This document shows positions 4,764-14,230 of a stretch of 14,230 bases of DNA, piece by piece (positions within the stretch are counted from its first letter, which is position 1; each line of letters opens with the position of its first letter). Under the pieces are notes generated by a model. The model had not been told where the DNA came from and ran no database searches. It was given only the letters and a program-made list of their open reading frames with translations. This stretch comes from a virus. The stretch is from the IMG/VR virus record IMGVR_UViG_3300045988_045788. The stretch is one strand, 5' to 3'. The translations under genes were made by a program, and so were the position numbers.

Positions 4764-6165
4764 AATAAAAACCGCCCTCCATATATGATTTTATCATTTG
4801 ATTTTCGTAAGCTGTGCCGGGTAGTGACACATCGGCATCGGCTACCATAATAAAGCCCGGAATTGTATTGATAACTTTTTCTTGACATAGAGGACGACCG
4901 CGGTGTTCTAACGACTCGGCTACTAACGGGAAAAACTGCGCTTGAAATCTAGGTTGAAAAGAAAAATCCGAAGTGCTACCAGTACTTCCCGAAGTTTGTA
5001 ACTGTGGTTGAGCGGATTTAATACTTGATTCAATACCGCTTGCAACACTTGATATAATTCCACCAACATTTCCTGTAGTAATTGCCTGCACTGTATTTGC
5101 CGCCGAGCCTATAGCGGTGCTAGCCATTCCTAAATAATCAATAGCCATTTGTGATAGCTGTAAAGGTACCGCGCACATAGAATCAAGTCGTGTAATTACT
5201 GTATTTAACTGTTCATCGGTTGAAATTGTAAGAGTGGCTTTTCCAGTAATCATATCTACATGATACGATACATATAAAGTGGATTTACCGTCTAAAAATG
5301 TTGTATCAATCGGTAAGCCGCCCCAAGGTTTAAAATCAAGACTGTATCGGCTGTACGGTGCTAAATTAAGATAGTTACCGCGCGTTACAGCTTGCGGATG
5401 CTTTGGAATTGTAATAGAATATGTTTTGTCATAGTCATAGTCAAGTAACTGTGTGCAACTTACGCCATTCATTTCCCACCATCCAAATTTAAGATTTGTT
5501 ACTAAAATTCCAGACCCTTTAAATTCAAACGGAAACCAGATACAGGAAGTTATATATTGAAATGGGTTAATTAATGCTTTTTGTAATTCGACAGAAATTT
5601 CGCCCGTATCAATGTTTAACCAGTCAGCACTTGCCATGAGAGCTCTATTTAATTTATTTAACTGTGATTTAGTAAAGTAATAGTAATTTACACCGCCCGA
5701 ACCTTGAGAATCCGAATTGATAATACCTAAAACGTAAGTACCCTTATTCCAAGACCGCGCCCACGGATTCTCTAAAAGTTGTGTATTTGTAGTGATTCCT
5801 GTGGTAGTAGGGTATAGACTGTCAACGATTCCGCCGTCATATGTATGAGACGAGCGCAAAATATACTGAGTTGACGCTCCAATAAAACTTTTCCAACTTG
5901 CCAATACGTCGATTTCACAACTAGCCCACCAAAGACCCTCATTCCAAGTCCAATCACGAATAAAATAATGCCTGCCGTATAATCCGATTGACACATAATT
6001 ATACATATAAATATCGCGGGTTGTTTTAAAAGAGAGAACCGGGGAAATAACCCCGGAACTCTGTTTTAAATTACAAGCAAGCGTTATATTATCTTCGCCG
6101 CCATCTGGAATTTTGGTTGAGTTTTCGCGCTTATTAAATTTTCTTAAAACAACCGTGAAACTCAT
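4756..6165 (-). CDS. Tail knob / distal tail tube protein (phi29 gp9-like)
   Basis: EIDVLASW matches the gp9 motif EIDVLQTW. The Gly/Ala/Ser-rich C-proximal segment MASTAIGSAANTVQAITTGNVGGIISSVASGI...AQPQLQTSGSTGS resembles the gp9 membrane-active loop followed by PPQL. The ATG at 6165 (MSFTVVL) has AGGAGG 7 nt upstream, so the track start at 6222 is an artefactual extension into the capsid gene. Confidence 0.65.
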   Translation of the reverse strand: MSFTVVLRKFNKRENSTKIPDGGEDNITLACNLKQSSGVISPVLSFKTTRDIYMYNYVSIGLYGRHYFIRDWTWNEGLWWASCEIDVLASWKSFIGASTQYILRSSHTYDGGIVDSLYPTTTGITTNTQLLENPWARSWNKGTYVLGIINSDSQGSGGVNYYYFTKSQLNKLNRALMASADWLNIDTGEISVELQKALINPFQYITSCIWFPFEFKGSGILVTNLKFGWWEMNGVSCTQLLDYDYDKTYSITIPKHPQAVTRGNYLNLAPYSRYSLDFKPWGGLPIDTTFLDGKSTLYVSYHVDMITGKATLTISTDEQLNTVITRLDSMCAVPLQLSQMAIDYLGMASTAIGSAANTVQAITTGNVGGIISSVASGIESSIKSAQPQLQTSGSTGSTSDFSFQPRFQAQFFPLVAESLEHRGRPLCQEKVINTIPGFIMVADADVSLPGTAYENQMIKSYMEGGFYYE

Positions 6166-7346: not shown

Positions 7347-7693
7347 TATTTATTACCTCCTTTGAAATCAGTCGGAATAGGCGGCGCAATCATCTGGGCA
7401 ATAATATCGTCTGTAGACTGTGGCTGTACCGTCTGAATCTGCTGCCCAATAAGATTAGTTGCCTGAATCGCTCCGGTTAAATTTTTAAGAGTCTGAATCA
7501 AATCCCCGTTATCAGGCTGAACCTGTGGCTGAACCTGTGGCTGAACCTGAGGCTGAACCTGCGGCTGAACCGGTGGCTGAACCTGTGGCTGAACCTGCGG
7601 CTGAACCTGTGGAGAATTTACACTTCCAAGTGCTAAAATCTGCTGTGCGGTAAATCCTGCCTTTGCAAGTAATAAAATGTCGTTCTGTGTCAT
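7346..7693 (-). CDS. Putative scaffolding protein carrying an internal (QVQP)8 tetrapeptide repeat
   Basis: 115 aa, immediately upstream of the capsid gene and translationally coupled to it, which is the position of phi29 gp7. AGGAGG lies 10 nt upstream of the ATG at 7693. I recognised no direct sequence motif, so the call rests on position and size. Confidence 0.5.
   Translation of the reverse strand: MTQNDILLLAKAGFTAQQILALGSVNSPQVQPQVQPQVQPPVQPQVQPQVQPQVQPQVQPDNGDLIQTLKNLTGAIQATNLIGQQIQTVQPQSTDDIIAQMIAPPIPTDFKGGNK
7515..7610. repeat. Tandem repeat, 8 x 12 bp (plus-strand unit ggctgaacctgt), in frame within the scaffold-like gene
   Basis: Eight contiguous units were read directly: ggctgaacctgt x2, ...ctga, ...ctgc, ggctgaaccggt, ...ctgt, ...ctgc, ...ctgt. 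They encode QVQP repeats on the minus strand. Confidence 0.95.
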
Positions 7694-7917
7694 GTGTCAA
7701 ATTCCTCCTTTAAATAAACATTACCGTTAATATCAACCGTAAGTGTTTTTATAGTTCTAATATTACCGTCTTTATCAAGGTAATAAATAGGACTGTAAAT
7801 ATCTACTTTATTAATATGAGCATTATCACATAGATTATCTAAGCAACAATATAAATTATATACAGTGCTTAATTTTTCACGTGAATCTAAACATTCCATA
7901 AATTTTAGACCTTTCAT
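7690..7917 (-). CDS. Hypothetical protein (75 aa, or 69 aa if it starts at the ATG at 7899)
   Basis: Its stop overlaps the scaffold start as ATGA (7690-7693), which suggests translational coupling. There is no convincing SD before 7917, and only a weak AAAGG before the ATG at 7899. I recognised no family motif. Confidence 0.5.
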   Translation of the reverse strand: MKGLKFMECLDSREKLSTVYNLYCCLDNLCDNAHINKVDIYSPIYYLDKDGNIRTIKTLTVDINGNVYLKEEFDT

Positions 7918-8380: not shown

Positions 8381-8573
8381 TCTCTTTCATCTCCTTTAGC
8401 ATAAGAGATAATTCATTCAACGCCTGTGTATTGTTATTAATTGCCGCTGTAAACAGCTTTGATTCTTCCTTATGGCTGTTCATCTCCCTGTACCATAAGA
8501 AAAATAATGCAATACACAACGCTACAGGAACTCCTGTGTTACTGATAAAGTCACTAATAGCCGCTAAATCCAT
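8364..8573 (-). CDS. Holin, BhlA/UviB-like (single N-terminal transmembrane helix plus a charged coiled C-terminus)
   Basis: 69 aa. A hydrophobic helix (GVPVALCIALFFLWY) is followed by REMNSHKEESKLF...NELSLMLKEMKE, matching the BhlA/UviB family pattern. AGGAGG lies 5 nt upstream of the ATG at 8573. The gene precedes the endolysin. Confidence 0.65.
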   Translation of the reverse strand: MDLAAISDFISNTGVPVALCIALFFLWYREMNSHKEESKLFTAAINNNTQALNELSLMLKEMKENESND

Positions 8574-8602
8574 TGAACCCTCCTATTCTACACCCTTATA
8601 AT

Positions 8603-8678
8603 AGGGAGATACTCCGGCGCGTCCCCGCGCGACGGACACCTTCCGGGTGTTGGATATTCCGCCGTTTCGTATATCTCC
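8603..8678 (-). ncRNA. GC-rich 76-nt multi-helix RNA element of unknown class (candidate pRNA-like packaging RNA, other small RNA, or structured 5' leader of the late/lysis transcript)
   Basis: The minus-strand RNA is GGGAGAUAUACGAAACGGCGGAAUAUCCAACACCCGGAAGGUGUCCGUCGCGCGGGGACGCGCCGGAGUAUCUCCC, with 48/76 G+C in a genome of roughly 30-35% GC. An 8-bp closing helix pairs 8671-8678 with 8603-8610. Internal hairpins are ACACC/GGUGU (8645-8649 with 8635-8639) and GCGCG/CGCGC with a GGGA loop (8625-8629 with 8616-8620). There is also a small GGA/UCC hairpin and a CGG/CCG bridging helix. A promoter lies directly upstream. No ORF covers the element. Confidence 0.5.
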
Positions 8679-8687
8679 CTGTGATTC

Positions 8688-8717
8688 TATGATACTACTT
8701 TCAGAATATTTTGTCAA
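8688..8717 (-). promoter_or_regulatory. Sigma-A/sigma-70-type promoter: TTGACA, 18-nt spacer, TATCAT
   Basis: On the minus strand the -35 TTGACA is at 8717-8712 and the -10 TATCAT is at 8693-8688. The -35 begins 6 nt after the ATPase stop codon. The predicted transcription start near 8681 is only about 3 nt upstream of the first G of the closing helix of the structured element. Confidence 0.6.
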
Positions 8718-8723
8718 GTCTGA

Positions 8724-9767
8724 TTATTCAAAATATTTTGTTAACAGCACCTCACATAAATATTCTTCGAAATCGATTTTGTTCCTAAGATACGCTAGCC
8801 ACACATACGCAAAATCACGTTTAAATCTAATTAACGATATTTCGCTTGGTTTATATTCCGGGCAAGTGCCCGCTGTATGTGTACTGGCATAGTAACGACC
8901 GTTAGACTTGTGTTTGTAAATAGTGAGTTCCCCAACATGGACGATTGGACGATATTCCTTTAACGATTTAGGCTTGGCTTGAAAATACTGCGAATCCAAA
9001 AACACATTGCCTAATGCCATTTTGTTATATTCATCATTACCACCGACTTTGTACAGTGCTGTATTCTTTTTCATTTCCGCGATGGGGGAGGACTGCGGAA
9101 TAATTAAACAAATACCTCTATCTTTATTAATATAATATTCTTGCTTGTTCTCAATCATTTTCATAGCTTTTGAAATAAGTCCGAACTCCATAAACATAGG
9201 ATTCGCCATTCTATCACTATTAGCACAGCAAACCATCTGAAAAGATTTTTCCCCTTTTAGTTCTCTATTTCGGTTGATAGTTTCAAATGCGTTTCTAAAA
9301 GCGAACCCCTCTTCCTTAATTTTTACATCGTGCGGCTCTGGGATAAACTCATCATATAAACCGATTCGATAACCTTGTCCAGAAAATCCCCTCAGGTTTT
9401 TAATGGTTGATAGCGCCATACACAATGCTAAAACTCCGCCATCTTTGCAAAGTTTGCCGTTCTCATTCGTGTACGATTCATTAATAGTATATGACGAAGT
9501 TTTCTTAATTGGAAAAAAATTATAGCTTTTATTAAAATCCGAATTAATAGGAATGAGTGGATTATATTCTTCAGTACAGCAAGCATCTAACTGTGTTTGT
9601 AATCGTCTCATATAAATAAATGGTTGTGGGTTGTCAATTAACAAATCTTTTAATGTGCCGTATGTCTTGCCGCTACCACGGGTATCTACTACAAAGGTAA
9701 AAGGTAAACCCCATGATATAATTCTAGGCATATCAACCCAACCATCTTTGTTGTATATATTTAGCAT
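8724..9767 (-). CDS. DNA encapsidation (packaging) ATPase, phi29 gp16-like; start uncertain because the ORF stays open up to a TTG at 9887
   Basis: The Walker A motif is VVDTRGSGKTYG and the Walker B motif is IGLYDEFIPE. PFIYMRRLQ resembles gp16 QFIYVRRYK. Starting at the ATG at 9767 puts the Walker A Lys at residue 34, against residue 30 in gp16 as I recall it. None of the candidate starts (9887 TTG, 9854/9851 ATG, 9767 ATG) has a normally spaced SD. Confidence 0.85.
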   Translation of the reverse strand: MLNIYNKDGWVDMPRIISWGLPFTFVVDTRGSGKTYGTLKDLLIDNPQPFIYMRRLQTQLDACCTEEYNPLIPINSDFNKSYNFFPIKKTSSYTINESYTNENGKLCKDGGVLALCMALSTIKNLRGFSGQGYRIGLYDEFIPEPHDVKIKEEGFAFRNAFETINRNRELKGEKSFQMVCCANSDRMANPMFMEFGLISKAMKMIENKQEYYINKDRGICLIIPQSSPIAEMKKNTALYKVGGNDEYNKMALGNVFLDSQYFQAKPKSLKEYRPIVHVGELTIYKHKSNGRYYASTHTAGTCPEYKPSEISLIRFKRDFAYVWLAYLRNKIDFEEYLCEVLLTKYFE

Positions 9768-9795
9768 AATAAAATAAGCGGGGCTACTGCCCCGC
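9768..9795 (-). terminator. Intrinsic terminator-like or attenuator hairpin: 7-bp all-GC stem plus a U-rich tract
   Basis: The minus-strand RNA is GCGGGGC-AGUA-GCCCCGC (9795-9778) followed by UUAUUUUAUU (9777-9768). It lies 25 nt downstream of the stop of the 64-aa ORF and immediately before the ATG at 9767. Confidence 0.55.
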
Positions 9796-10402: not shown

Positions 10403-10431
10403 ATTATAAACCATTACATTTATAATGTCAA
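10403..10431 (-). promoter_or_regulatory. Perfect consensus sigma-A/sigma-70 promoter: TTGACA, 17-nt spacer, TATAAT
   Basis: On the minus strand the -35 TTGACA is at 10431-10426 and the -10 TATAAT is at 10408-10403, with an exactly 17-nt spacer. It begins 5 nt after the DNA polymerase stop codon (10437-10439) and lies about 36 nt upstream of the SSB-like start. Confidence 0.7.
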
Positions 10432-13948: not shown

Positions 13949-14230
13949 TTGTCGCTTCACTTCGCTAAAGTAAATTGTTTCTAAATTGTTTACACAGTGT
14001 CACTTTAGCACTTTAAAGCAAGTACTGAGAGCGGTCTGATAATTTATGGTATGTTCGATTAGTTTTCAGATTATTTATTAAATTGTATGTAAACTTGAAA
14101 CAATAAGCAGTTGGAAAGTTAAATTGATGAACTTTAACTGATTTTATTGTGTTAAAATTAATATAATTGTCAGATAATAAGGTTTGAAAGTGGGGAATTG
14201 TTCGAGGTTTAGACACAACTCTATTTAGAG
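13949..14230. repeat. Right inverted terminal repeat (ITR-R): 14022-14230 identical to the reverse complement of 1-209; 13949-14021 about 90% identical to 210-282
   Basis: This comes from the same base-by-base comparison as ITR-L. Confidence 0.95.

Follow-up and report, generated by a model that had tools for sequence, protein, structure and literature searches.

A structured RNA between the packaging ATPase and the first late gene

Record IMGVR_UViG_3300045988_045788 of IMG/VR, the 14,230-nt stretch analyzed here and called the window throughout, is a complete linear phi29-like genome with all of its genes on the minus strand. Our subject is its largest internal non-coding gap (150 nt, 8574–8723; the next largest are 77 and 49 nt), which separates the gene of a gp16-type packaging ATPase from that of a holin-like protein and had been singled out, in an original prediction made from the letters alone, as the only sizeable gap inside the genome and the seat of a structured RNA with its own promoter, akin to the prohead RNA (pRNA) of phi29-family phages. 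A near-consensus promoter (TTGACA-17-TATCAT, 8717–8689) does begin 6 nt past the ATPase stop, with a spacer of 17 nt instead of the 18 nt first counted, and transcription would be expected to start near 8682, 2–3 nt before the first helix of the RNA. Minimum free energy (MFE) folding of the sequence downstream gives a three-way junction in which the 5′ and 3′ ends pair as a closing helix (P1), a second arm is divided by a bulge on its 5′ side into a lower helix (P2a) and an apical hairpin (P2b) with a pentaloop, and the third arm is a short hairpin (P3), the junction strands being J1/2 and J3/1 (Table 1).

Composition and much of the fold agree with what had been proposed, although coordinates had been off by one in places. 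Segment 8678–8603 is enriched in GC, at 61.8% rather than 63%, compared with 35.6% for the genome; the closing helix, drawn at first as 8 bp (GGGAGAUA/UAUCUCCC), exists and extends to 10 bp (AGGGAGAUAU/GUAUCUCCCU); and the fold contains both CACC-CGGAA-GGUG and GCGCG-GGGA-CGCGC as hairpins. The element is neither a tRNA nor a simple terminator, as had been said, with ARAGORN finding no tRNA in the window and no terminator being found between the RNA and the Shine-Dalgarno (SD) sequence of the holin-like gene. No Rfam family matched, either at the gathering threshold on the whole window or at E values up to 10 on 8400–8900. Shuffled sequences, suggested earlier as a control, show that the energy of this single fold is not remarkable (−31.1 kcal/mol, z = −1.97, with 10 of 200 shuffles folding equally well), and it is covariation among homologs that carries the case.

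Table 1. Features of the RNA locus and genes of the window
Feature	Position	Strand	Remarks
−35 hexamer TTGACA	8712–8717	minus	promoter matching the consensus at 11 of 12 positions, 17-nt spacer
−10 hexamer TATCAT	8689–8694	minus	same near-consensus promoter
Structured RNA, 78-nt three-way junction	8603–8680	minus	61.5% GC; MFE fold, covariance models and covariation
P1 5′ strand AGGGAGAUAU	8671–8680	minus	closing helix, 10 bp; probable counterpart of pRNA helix A
J1/2 ACGAAAC	8664–8670	minus	7 nt here, 0–1 nt in most relatives
P2a 5′ strand GGCGGA	8658–8663	minus	pairs with 8636–8631; probable counterpart of pRNA helix C
5′ bulge AUAUCCAA	8650–8657	minus	8 nt; UCC (8654–8652) complementary to GGA of the P3 loop; probable counterpart of the pRNA CE bulge
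P2b hairpin CACC-CGGAA-GGUG	8637–8649	minus	pentaloop CGGAA at 8645–8641; probable counterpart of pRNA E helix and loop
P2a 3′ strand UCCGUC	8631–8636	minus	MFE fold, double changes in L003, covariation
P3 hairpin GCGCG-GGGA-CGCGC	8617–8630	minus	loop GGGA at 8625–8622, of which GGA (8624–8622) would pair with bulge UCC; probable counterpart of pRNA D
J3/1 CGGA	8613–8616	minus	3–6 nt in relatives, mostly with GA at the end
P1 3′ strand GUAUCUCCCU	8603–8612	minus	partner of 8680–8671
"Anti-E" GGGUGU	8590–8595	minus	complementary to ACACCC (last A of the bulge, CACC of the P2b 5′ strand, first C of the loop)
Shine-Dalgarno AGGAGGG and ATG	8571–8584	minus	SD 8584–8578, ATG 8573–8571; holin-like first late gene
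Type-B protein-primed polymerase (PolB type 2)	12494–10437	minus	Pfam DNA_pol_B_2
gp16-type packaging ATPase	most likely 9770–8724	minus	Pfam Podovirus_Gp16; PDB matches to phi29 gp16 (7jqq, 5hd9)
69-aa holin-like membrane protein, first late gene	8573–8364	minus	PHROG holin, E = 7e-4
Lysin-like, (VQPQ)n scaffold-like, phi29-type major capsid, tail lysozyme, gp10-type connector, lower collar, tailspike		minus	remaining genes

Homologs and covariation of the helices

No DNA-level match to the region was found among 50,697 deposited phage records, and relatives were therefore located through the ATPase protein. A search with this protein retrieved three near-identical IMG/VR contigs, while an ATPase alignment as query returned more than 476 related contigs of 12–15 kb, mainly from human gut samples; unannotated GenBank gut phage scaffolds and cultured phages supplied further relatives. 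A structural parser picked out this architecture immediately downstream of the ATPase stop codon at 56 loci (related loci are given L numbers below), and covariance models built from the parsed loci detected the RNA in 55 of 78 sources, always on the late-gene strand and exactly once per complete genome. The remaining sources hold expanded or divergent versions, or have the RNA outside the fetched flank. In all, homologous RNAs occur in more than 55 related contigs, and conservation extends to hundreds of small gut phages of the phi29 type. The RNA of the window, the sole copy in its genome, was matched by both models (R1, E = 1.4e-4; R2, E = 2.7e-6). It was absent from the expected places in Clostridium innocuum phage CI644P1 and in MT835873, yet it appears to be near-universal, present in essentially the whole of a phage family whose RNA-bearing members have ATPases only 24–50% identical.

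The homologs have a median length of 71 nt, and their P1 has a median of 10 bp (range 5–17) with no conserved bulge. Junction strands vary in both length and sequence, and the only conserved nucleotides are those of the apical loop, a C-N-G-A-A pentaloop in nearly all homologs. A consensus-like promoter stands at the equivalent place in the relatives, and at 34 of the 52 loci compared its −10 box ends 5–7 nt short of where P1 begins to pair.

Compensatory changes in related genomes, which the original prediction had named as a check, were found in every helix. The closest divergent relative, L003 (ATPase 93% identical), already has four compensatory double changes: two in P2a, which reads GGCUCA/UGAGUC where the window has GGCGGA/UCCGUC, and two in P2b (CGCU/AGCG). 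Across a model-derived alignment of 49 distinct sequences, in which nested-pair counts are biased because the nested helices were fitted to the covariance model, 89.3% of nested positions were paired as opposed to 54.8% after shuffling and 33–43% when partners were slid, and the covariation score was 0.81 in comparison with 0.11–0.14 for the controls. Double-sided changes occurred in all 25 pairs (21 nested and 4 in the pseudoknot described below). By helix, the columns were 88% paired in P1 (double changes in 8 of 8 pairs), 95.8% in P2a, 98.5% in P2b and 85.8% in P3 (5 of 5 pairs). RNAalifold gave the same junction independently, with double changes in 20 of 20 pairs. Owing to this covariation, the element is beyond chance.

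The same comparisons removed some details of the first model. A proposed GGA-AUA-UCC hairpin finds no support in the relatives, in which the GGA belongs to P2a and the UCC to a conserved bulge that pairs with the P3 loop; an alternative CGGCG/CGCCG pairing finds none in L003, the sole informative variant, where a G has become U without compensation. The argument for a conformational switch rested on these two pairings and falls with them.

Pairing between the P2 bulge and the P3 loop

Watson-Crick complementarity links the 3′ portion of the P2 bulge with the loop of P3, and bulge and loop covary. This pseudoknot was left out of the covariance model. The longest complementary run averaged 3.96 across 48 distinct RNAs compared with 2.32 for mismatched partners, and none of 5000 permutations reached 3.96; the four pseudoknot columns were 79.5% paired, with double changes in 4 of 4. 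The sequences themselves are diverse (GCACA/UGUGC, UUGCA/UGCAA, GACCA/UGGUC, GCAUA/UAUGC, ACAGC/GCUGU, GGACA/UGUCC, GAGCA/UGCUC and GUGCAG/CUGCAC), and in MT835901 the pairing extends to 8 bp (AAAAGGAA/UUCCUUUU).

The geometry of the junction bears on whether this pairing forms within one molecule or between two. Parallel arms in a three-way junction reportedly need a long linker between them, according to the rules of Lescoute and Westhof (2006), and hammerheads and purine riboswitches have such a long inter-arm linker. Here the linker between P2 and P3 is 0–2 nt and the longest junction strand is J3/1, which disfavors a side-by-side arrangement of P2 and P3 and hence an intramolecular kiss. 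The bulge/loop pairing may be intermolecular.

Comparison with phi29 pRNA

For reference, we folded the 120-nt phi29 pRNA by MFE. The fold runs from the A helix through U29 into a C helix (6+3 bp), a 9-nt bulge on the 5′ side only (GAUUAAACC), a 4-bp E helix with a 6-nt loop, the C return strand, UUU, a D hairpin (6 bp, loop UGGUU) and the A return strand, and the order and sidedness of these elements equal those of the window RNA and its homologs. Both RNAs, moreover, come from phi29-like podoviruses whose ATPase is of the gp16 type and whose connector is of the gp10 type, and they share a strong sigma-A-type promoter of their own with the 5′ end of the transcript paired in the closing helix, a complementary and covarying bulge/D-loop pair of 3–6 nt, and a very variable sequence on a conserved structure. 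The ring of pRNAs on the phi29 prohead is built by pairing of the bulge (AACC) of one molecule with the D loop (GGUU) of its neighbor, and a covarying pairing of 3–4 nt is treated as a signature of pRNA (PMC5066667, PMC12670572).

Topology by itself is a poor guide. A loose descriptor of the pRNA topology gave 10–48 matches per genome of 12–19 kb, and missed both the window, because of its 3-bp kiss, and phi29 itself, because of its interrupted helices. With so permissive a descriptor, finding the topology in one sequence carries little weight, and the resemblance to pRNA counts only because covariation backs each element.

There are also clear differences. The C-type helix has 4–6 bp here and 9–10 bp in phi29; a conserved CNGAA apical loop belongs to the gut-phage RNA and not to phi29 pRNA. 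The gut-phage RNA opens the late operon, usually immediately behind the ATPase gene, and is mostly co-transcribed with messenger RNA (mRNA), whereas phi29 pRNA is encoded at the genome end. Hosts are gut Firmicutes (Amedibacillus, and Clostridium perfringens for a larger version described below) as opposed to Bacillus for pRNA. By every testable structural criterion other than a match to RF00044 and a long A helix, the RNA is like pRNA.

Genomic position and evidence for a separate RNA

The order of elements is constant: strong promoter, RNA, first late or head gene. The packaging ATPase on one side and the scaffold and capsid genes on the other commonly flank the RNA, and its adjacency to the ATPase had been used as an argument for a pRNA-like role. 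That argument fails, and what stays constant is that the RNA heads the late operon. MT835998 has its ATPase on the opposite strand about 8 kb away, and the RNA (1051–1119) stands behind its promoter at the start of the late operon, before a holin-like gene; in L054 and L075 promoter, RNA and holin are cut off from the ATPase by a convergent gene inserted between them. Further clades have a scaffold-like gene next to the RNA and the capsid gene after it. Homologs of the (VQPQ)n scaffold-like protein of the window are the first gene after the RNA in L026, L033, L044 and MT836587.

Two clades speak for a stand-alone RNA. In the L065 clade, the RNA is expanded to about 110 nt with two hairpins in place of the E arm and is recognized weakly by the models; bulge/loop covariation is retained in such expanded RNAs (GUACA/UGUAC in the L065 clade, UGUGC/GCACA in L005). 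An intrinsic terminator follows immediately after the expanded RNA in this clade, and the holin homolog starts about 90 nt further on. Between terminator and holin homolog, L065 also has a long inverted repeat at 2738–2785 (GUUUCACGUGGAACAU ... AUGUUCCAGUGAAAC). The other clade is that of MT836587, a very abundant gut phage species whose RNA shows compensatory micro-variation: in 79 of 80 contigs, a tRNA-Gln begins 3–4 nt after P1, an arrangement in which RNase P would sever the RNA from the mRNA. This tRNA lies at 8564–8489 (minus strand) in L097 (MT836587) and occurs also among L098–L177; its anticodon is UUG, or CUG in two contigs, and it is the sole RNA-adjacent tRNA among the clades examined.

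The distance from P1 to the next SD sequence ranges from 3 to about 100 nt and is filled with unrelated inserts, which likewise favors a separate RNA, as does the fixed spacing of 5–7 nt between −10 box and P1. Some clades have additional structured segments of their own ahead of the first late gene, seen in L055–L058 and L079 (about 90 nt after the RNA) and in L027, L029, L045, L080 and L084. One is a GC-rich insert of about 90 nt and the other a conserved palindromic hairpin resembling UGUAUACAAGUAUACA, and they might represent a pRNA domain II or processing sites.

A proposed pRNA-type packaging RNA as the best explanation

Taken together, the element is probably the gene for a small, stable, structured RNA that is the counterpart, and probably a distant homolog, of domain I of phi29 pRNA. 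We consider a miniature pRNA-type packaging RNA, oligomerizing through bulge and loop and bridging the prohead and the ATPase, to be the best reading and give it roughly an even chance (about 0.5). Under this scheme, host RNA polymerase would start at the strong promoter 2–3 nt before P1, and the first 78 nt of the transcript would fold to the three-way junction. The 3′ part of the P2 bulge would pair with the P3 loop of a neighboring copy, giving a ring of several copies on the portal vertex, where the CNGAA pentaloop and the bulge/loop region could contact the connector or capsid. The P1 helices, pointing outward, would dock the gp16-type ATPase, which would then package the protein-capped 14.2-kb genome. 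This reading draws directly on the promoter motif, the fold, the covariation including that of bulge and loop, the distribution, the genomic position and the terminator or tRNA downstream in some clades; release from the late mRNA in the window phage, binding to prohead and ATPase, and function in packaging would be its further steps. The original proposal, that this phi29-family phage encodes a structured, pRNA-like RNA under a promoter of its own, has thus been strengthened, by the gp16, gp10, capsid and PolB genes as well as by covariation and bulge/loop complementarity.

Several points weigh against it. The RNA is short, about 70–78 nt where pRNA domain I has 117–120 nt, to which domain II adds for a total of 174 nt. 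In phi29 the A helix spans about 25 bp and carries a CCA bulge that binds the ATPase (PMC5066667); P1 has about 10 bp and no CCA-type bulge, and is longer but interrupted in the phiCPV4 version. J3/1 (D-A) is the longest of the junction strands, a place taken in phi29 by the C/D linker, so that helix stacking would differ. The kissing pair of the window has just 3 bp (UCC/GGA). The scan for the pRNA family RF00044 that had been suggested gave no match on the whole window at the gathering threshold, on 8400–8900 at E values up to 10, or at E values up to 1 at six related loci, among them the larger versions of the RNA. The N terminus of the connector has no basic cluster like the RKR cluster that phi29 gp10 uses for pRNA binding. 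Finally, three features look like those of a leader: the window and most relatives have neither terminator nor tRNA to part the RNA from the first late gene; the RNA is always sense-oriented at the head of the late operon; and in several clades a segment 7–12 nt after P1 ("anti-E") is complementary to the P2b 5′ strand and loop, covaries with them and has the look of a cis-acting switch.

Alternative explanations

The strongest alternative, which we nevertheless regard as unlikely, is that the RNA acts in cis as a leader of the late operon, in antitermination, in protection of the mRNA 5′ end or in timing the translation of the first late gene. It might render polymerase resistant to terminators in the manner of HK022 put, a nut/boxB-type site or the Bacillus EAR element, with anti-E as the partner in a switch and CNGAA as a factor-binding site. 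Like put, lambda nut (boxB) and EAR, the RNA is structured, is transcribed directly behind the promoter of a long operon, and presents a small hairpin whose conserved pentaloop is a possible contact for a protein or polymerase. However, put is built of two stem-loops and has neither three-way junction nor kissing pair, boxB has the loop GNRNA in place of CNGAA, none of the three has a covarying bulge/loop pairing, and a tRNA or terminator directly after the RNA fits them less well.

Position speaks for a leader, in that the RNA precedes the first late gene in the sense direction behind a strong promoter even where the ATPase is elsewhere and, in the window and most relatives, no terminator intervenes before the SD; P1 begins 2–3 nt from the 5′ end, and known Firmicute 5′ stabilizers likewise start a helix near the 5′ end. 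The terminator right after the RNA in the L065 clade would fit a regulated attenuator, and terminator-like hairpins occur within the late operon, for example at 6056–6039 after the capsid gene. The arrangement of the locus parallels PR′-tR′-S of lambda. The first downstream gene, however, varies by clade (holin-like, scaffold-like or other), P1–SD spacing is variable, with unrelated inserts, and one clade has, in 79 of its 80 contigs, a tRNA interposed between the RNA and the first open reading frame (ORF), so that processing would detach the leader from both mRNA and polymerase. A simple stabilizer or operator has no need of a three-way junction with a covarying kissing pair, and the junction strands are not conserved as the pockets of riboswitches are.

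It is mainly the anti-E segment that keeps a cis-regulatory role in play. Its pairing spans 9 bp in MT835998 and 8 bp in L033, and follows changes in sequence, GGGCGG facing ACGCUC in L003 and GGGUGU facing ACACCC in the window; none of 3000 permutations reached the observed mean, a result inflated by related sequences. Forcing the pairing in the window costs just 2 kcal/mol. On the other hand, anti-E is an optional, clade-specific addition that is absent in many clades, and the SD of the window's holin-like gene is predicted to be mostly unpaired in both folds. Sequestration of the SD by the P1 3′ strand (CUCCCU against AGGAGG) was considered and rejected, the SD being predicted mostly open and the spacing unconserved.

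We think it improbable that the RNA is some other stable, trans-acting phage RNA, whether a small regulator with CNGAA as its seed (and anti-E as a target), a decoy or sponge for a host factor or defense system, or an RNA that dimerizes to some other end. Many phage non-coding RNAs with regulatory or anti-defense roles are being found, the terminator and tRNA clades point to a stand-alone molecule, and the conserved, exposed apical loop is an exact complement of a downstream mRNA segment in some clades (UUCCG(GG) against (CC)CGGAA). Accessory anti-defense genes are usually patchy, though, unlike this single-copy, position-fixed and near-universal element found alongside ATPases 24–50% identical. 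The loop also varies, to UCGAA in Amedibacillus phage AD70P2, AGNCA in the MT836587 clade and GUGGAA in phiCPV4; an apical loop that is not invariant makes a fixed host target unlikely, and the pRNA-type topology would be left unexplained.

A metabolite riboswitch, small self-cleaving ribozyme or tRNA-like element is hardly credible: a three-way junction of about 70 nt closed by its 5′ and 3′ ends, with tertiary pairing of a loop-loop type between the distal arms, recalls purine riboswitches and hammerheads, as do the 5′ untranslated position and the CGAAAC and, just before P3, GUC of the window, but in purine riboswitches and hammerheads the junction strands are long and conserved, and parallel arms are joined by a long linker, where the present strands are short and variable with 0–2 nt between P2 and P3, only the apical loop is conserved, no consistent expression platform was seen, Rfam gave no match at E values up to 10, and ARAGORN found no tRNA. 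A hammerhead was rejected specifically, there being no CUGAUGA, GAAAC having become GAAGC in L003, and the stem III register required by the GUC being contradicted by compensatory changes.

Cultured phages

The gut-phage models do not reach all candidates: R1 and R2 fail to detect the RNA in AD70P2, MT836155, MT835901 and phiCPV4, as well as phi29 pRNA itself. The assignments in the first four are weaker because they were read by eye and MFE, and those in AD70P2 and the C. perfringens phages are weaker than in the gut-phage family, with fewer sequences and our own reading behind them. In AD70P2 (Guelinviridae; OP172638), promoter and RNA occupy a 123-nt gap after the ATPase, the RNA lying at about 6475–6404 on the minus strand, and the bulge (AUAUCCAA) and P3 loop (GGGA) are identical to those of the window; the bulge of MT836587 is nearly identical as well.

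Among C. perfringens phages (phiCPV4, phiZP2, phiCP7R, CPQ, CPS2 and others), a non-coding block conserved at 90–100% lies upstream of the gene that precedes the capsid gene. There, the RNA is about 105 nt long and combines a long interrupted P1 with a P2a of about 10 bp. Its bulge is CGCCA, of which GCCA pairs with the P3 loop UGGC, its hairpin reads GGG-GUGGAA-CCC, and it shows several compensatory changes. Its dimensions are nearer to those of phi29 pRNA than are those of the gut-phage RNA. We found the block in 17 C. perfringens phages, at about 16290–16170 (minus strand) in phiCPV4 (L090, NC_018083) and at 1337–1459 in CPS2, where the annotation has a hypothetical protein, CPS2_5, that is unlikely to be a true gene.

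Gene content and other features of the window

Judged by its genes (Table 1), the window phage is a small phi29-like podovirus, and its connector and capsid are identified by Pfam (Phage_connector, Phi29_MCP) and by PDB matches to the portals of phi29, GA1 and phiCPV4. Its inverted terminal repeats (1–282 and 13949–14230, 98% complementary) are 282 bp long, compared with 6 bp in phi29 and 28 bp in phiCPV4. The ATPase ORF of 387 aa with a TTG start is over-extended, because relative L003 has a stop inside the extension, and the probable true start is the ATG at 9770. Just 5′ of it lies a terminator-like hairpin (GGCGGGGCAGUAGCCCCGCU then UAUUUUAUUA, 9796–9777, minus strand), so that the ATPase may stand behind a terminator closing the early unit.

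The only other near-consensus promoter on the coding strand is a perfect one (TTGACA-17-TATAAT, 12 of 12, at 10431–10403, minus strand), in the gap 10436–10360 directly after the polymerase gene and before a 110-aa ORF, with no obvious structured RNA downstream. The hairpin at 6056–6039 (both strands), just after the major capsid gene, is GC-rich with a U-rich tail and could be a partial terminator within the late operon. A local GC peak of 50% at 7401–7700 stems from the (VQPQ)n repeat in a 115-aa protein (ORF 7693–7346, minus strand) with the N-terminal motif LAKAGFT. One relative, L038 (IMGVR_UViG_3300028048_000972), is likewise 14,230 nt long with an ATPase 42% identical to that of the window, an equality of length that looks coincidental.

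Significance for phi29-like phages

Reviews up to 2025 confine pRNA to phi29-like phages of Bacillus (PMC11476376, PMC5066667, PMC12670572), and relatives such as asccphi28 have been described as having none (PMC7823558). In the full-text literature and pRNA reviews searched, the coverage of which is incomplete, we found no published description of this RNA or of a pRNA outside the Bacillus phages, and no Rfam family matched the gut-phage RNA. The RNA is therefore a strong but unproven candidate for a pRNA outside Bacillus. That the packaging motor of a single phage lineage should need an RNA is a long-standing puzzle, and a pRNA topology backed by covariation changes this picture; its occurrence in very abundant gut phages, and in phages of Amedibacillus and C. 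perfringens that are in culture, makes the question directly testable.

More tentatively, at odds a little below even, pRNA may be an ancestral part of the phi29-like motor that survives in hundreds of podoviruses of the human gut as a minimal core, about 70 nt in size, and at about 105 nt in the C. perfringens phages; often it would also be the 5′ end of the late or lysis mRNA, with anti-E feeding the state of the RNA (free, mRNA-bound or prohead-bound) back on late and lysis expression. If the pRNA interpretation is true, these phages would show how small a pRNA core can be, at about 70 nt, with uses in motor mechanics and in RNA nanotechnology based on the pRNA three-way junction, and an evolutionary series from about 70 through 105 to 120 nt. 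If the RNA is a leader instead, it would still be a new, widespread and well-supported class of phage RNA controlling late and lysis genes.

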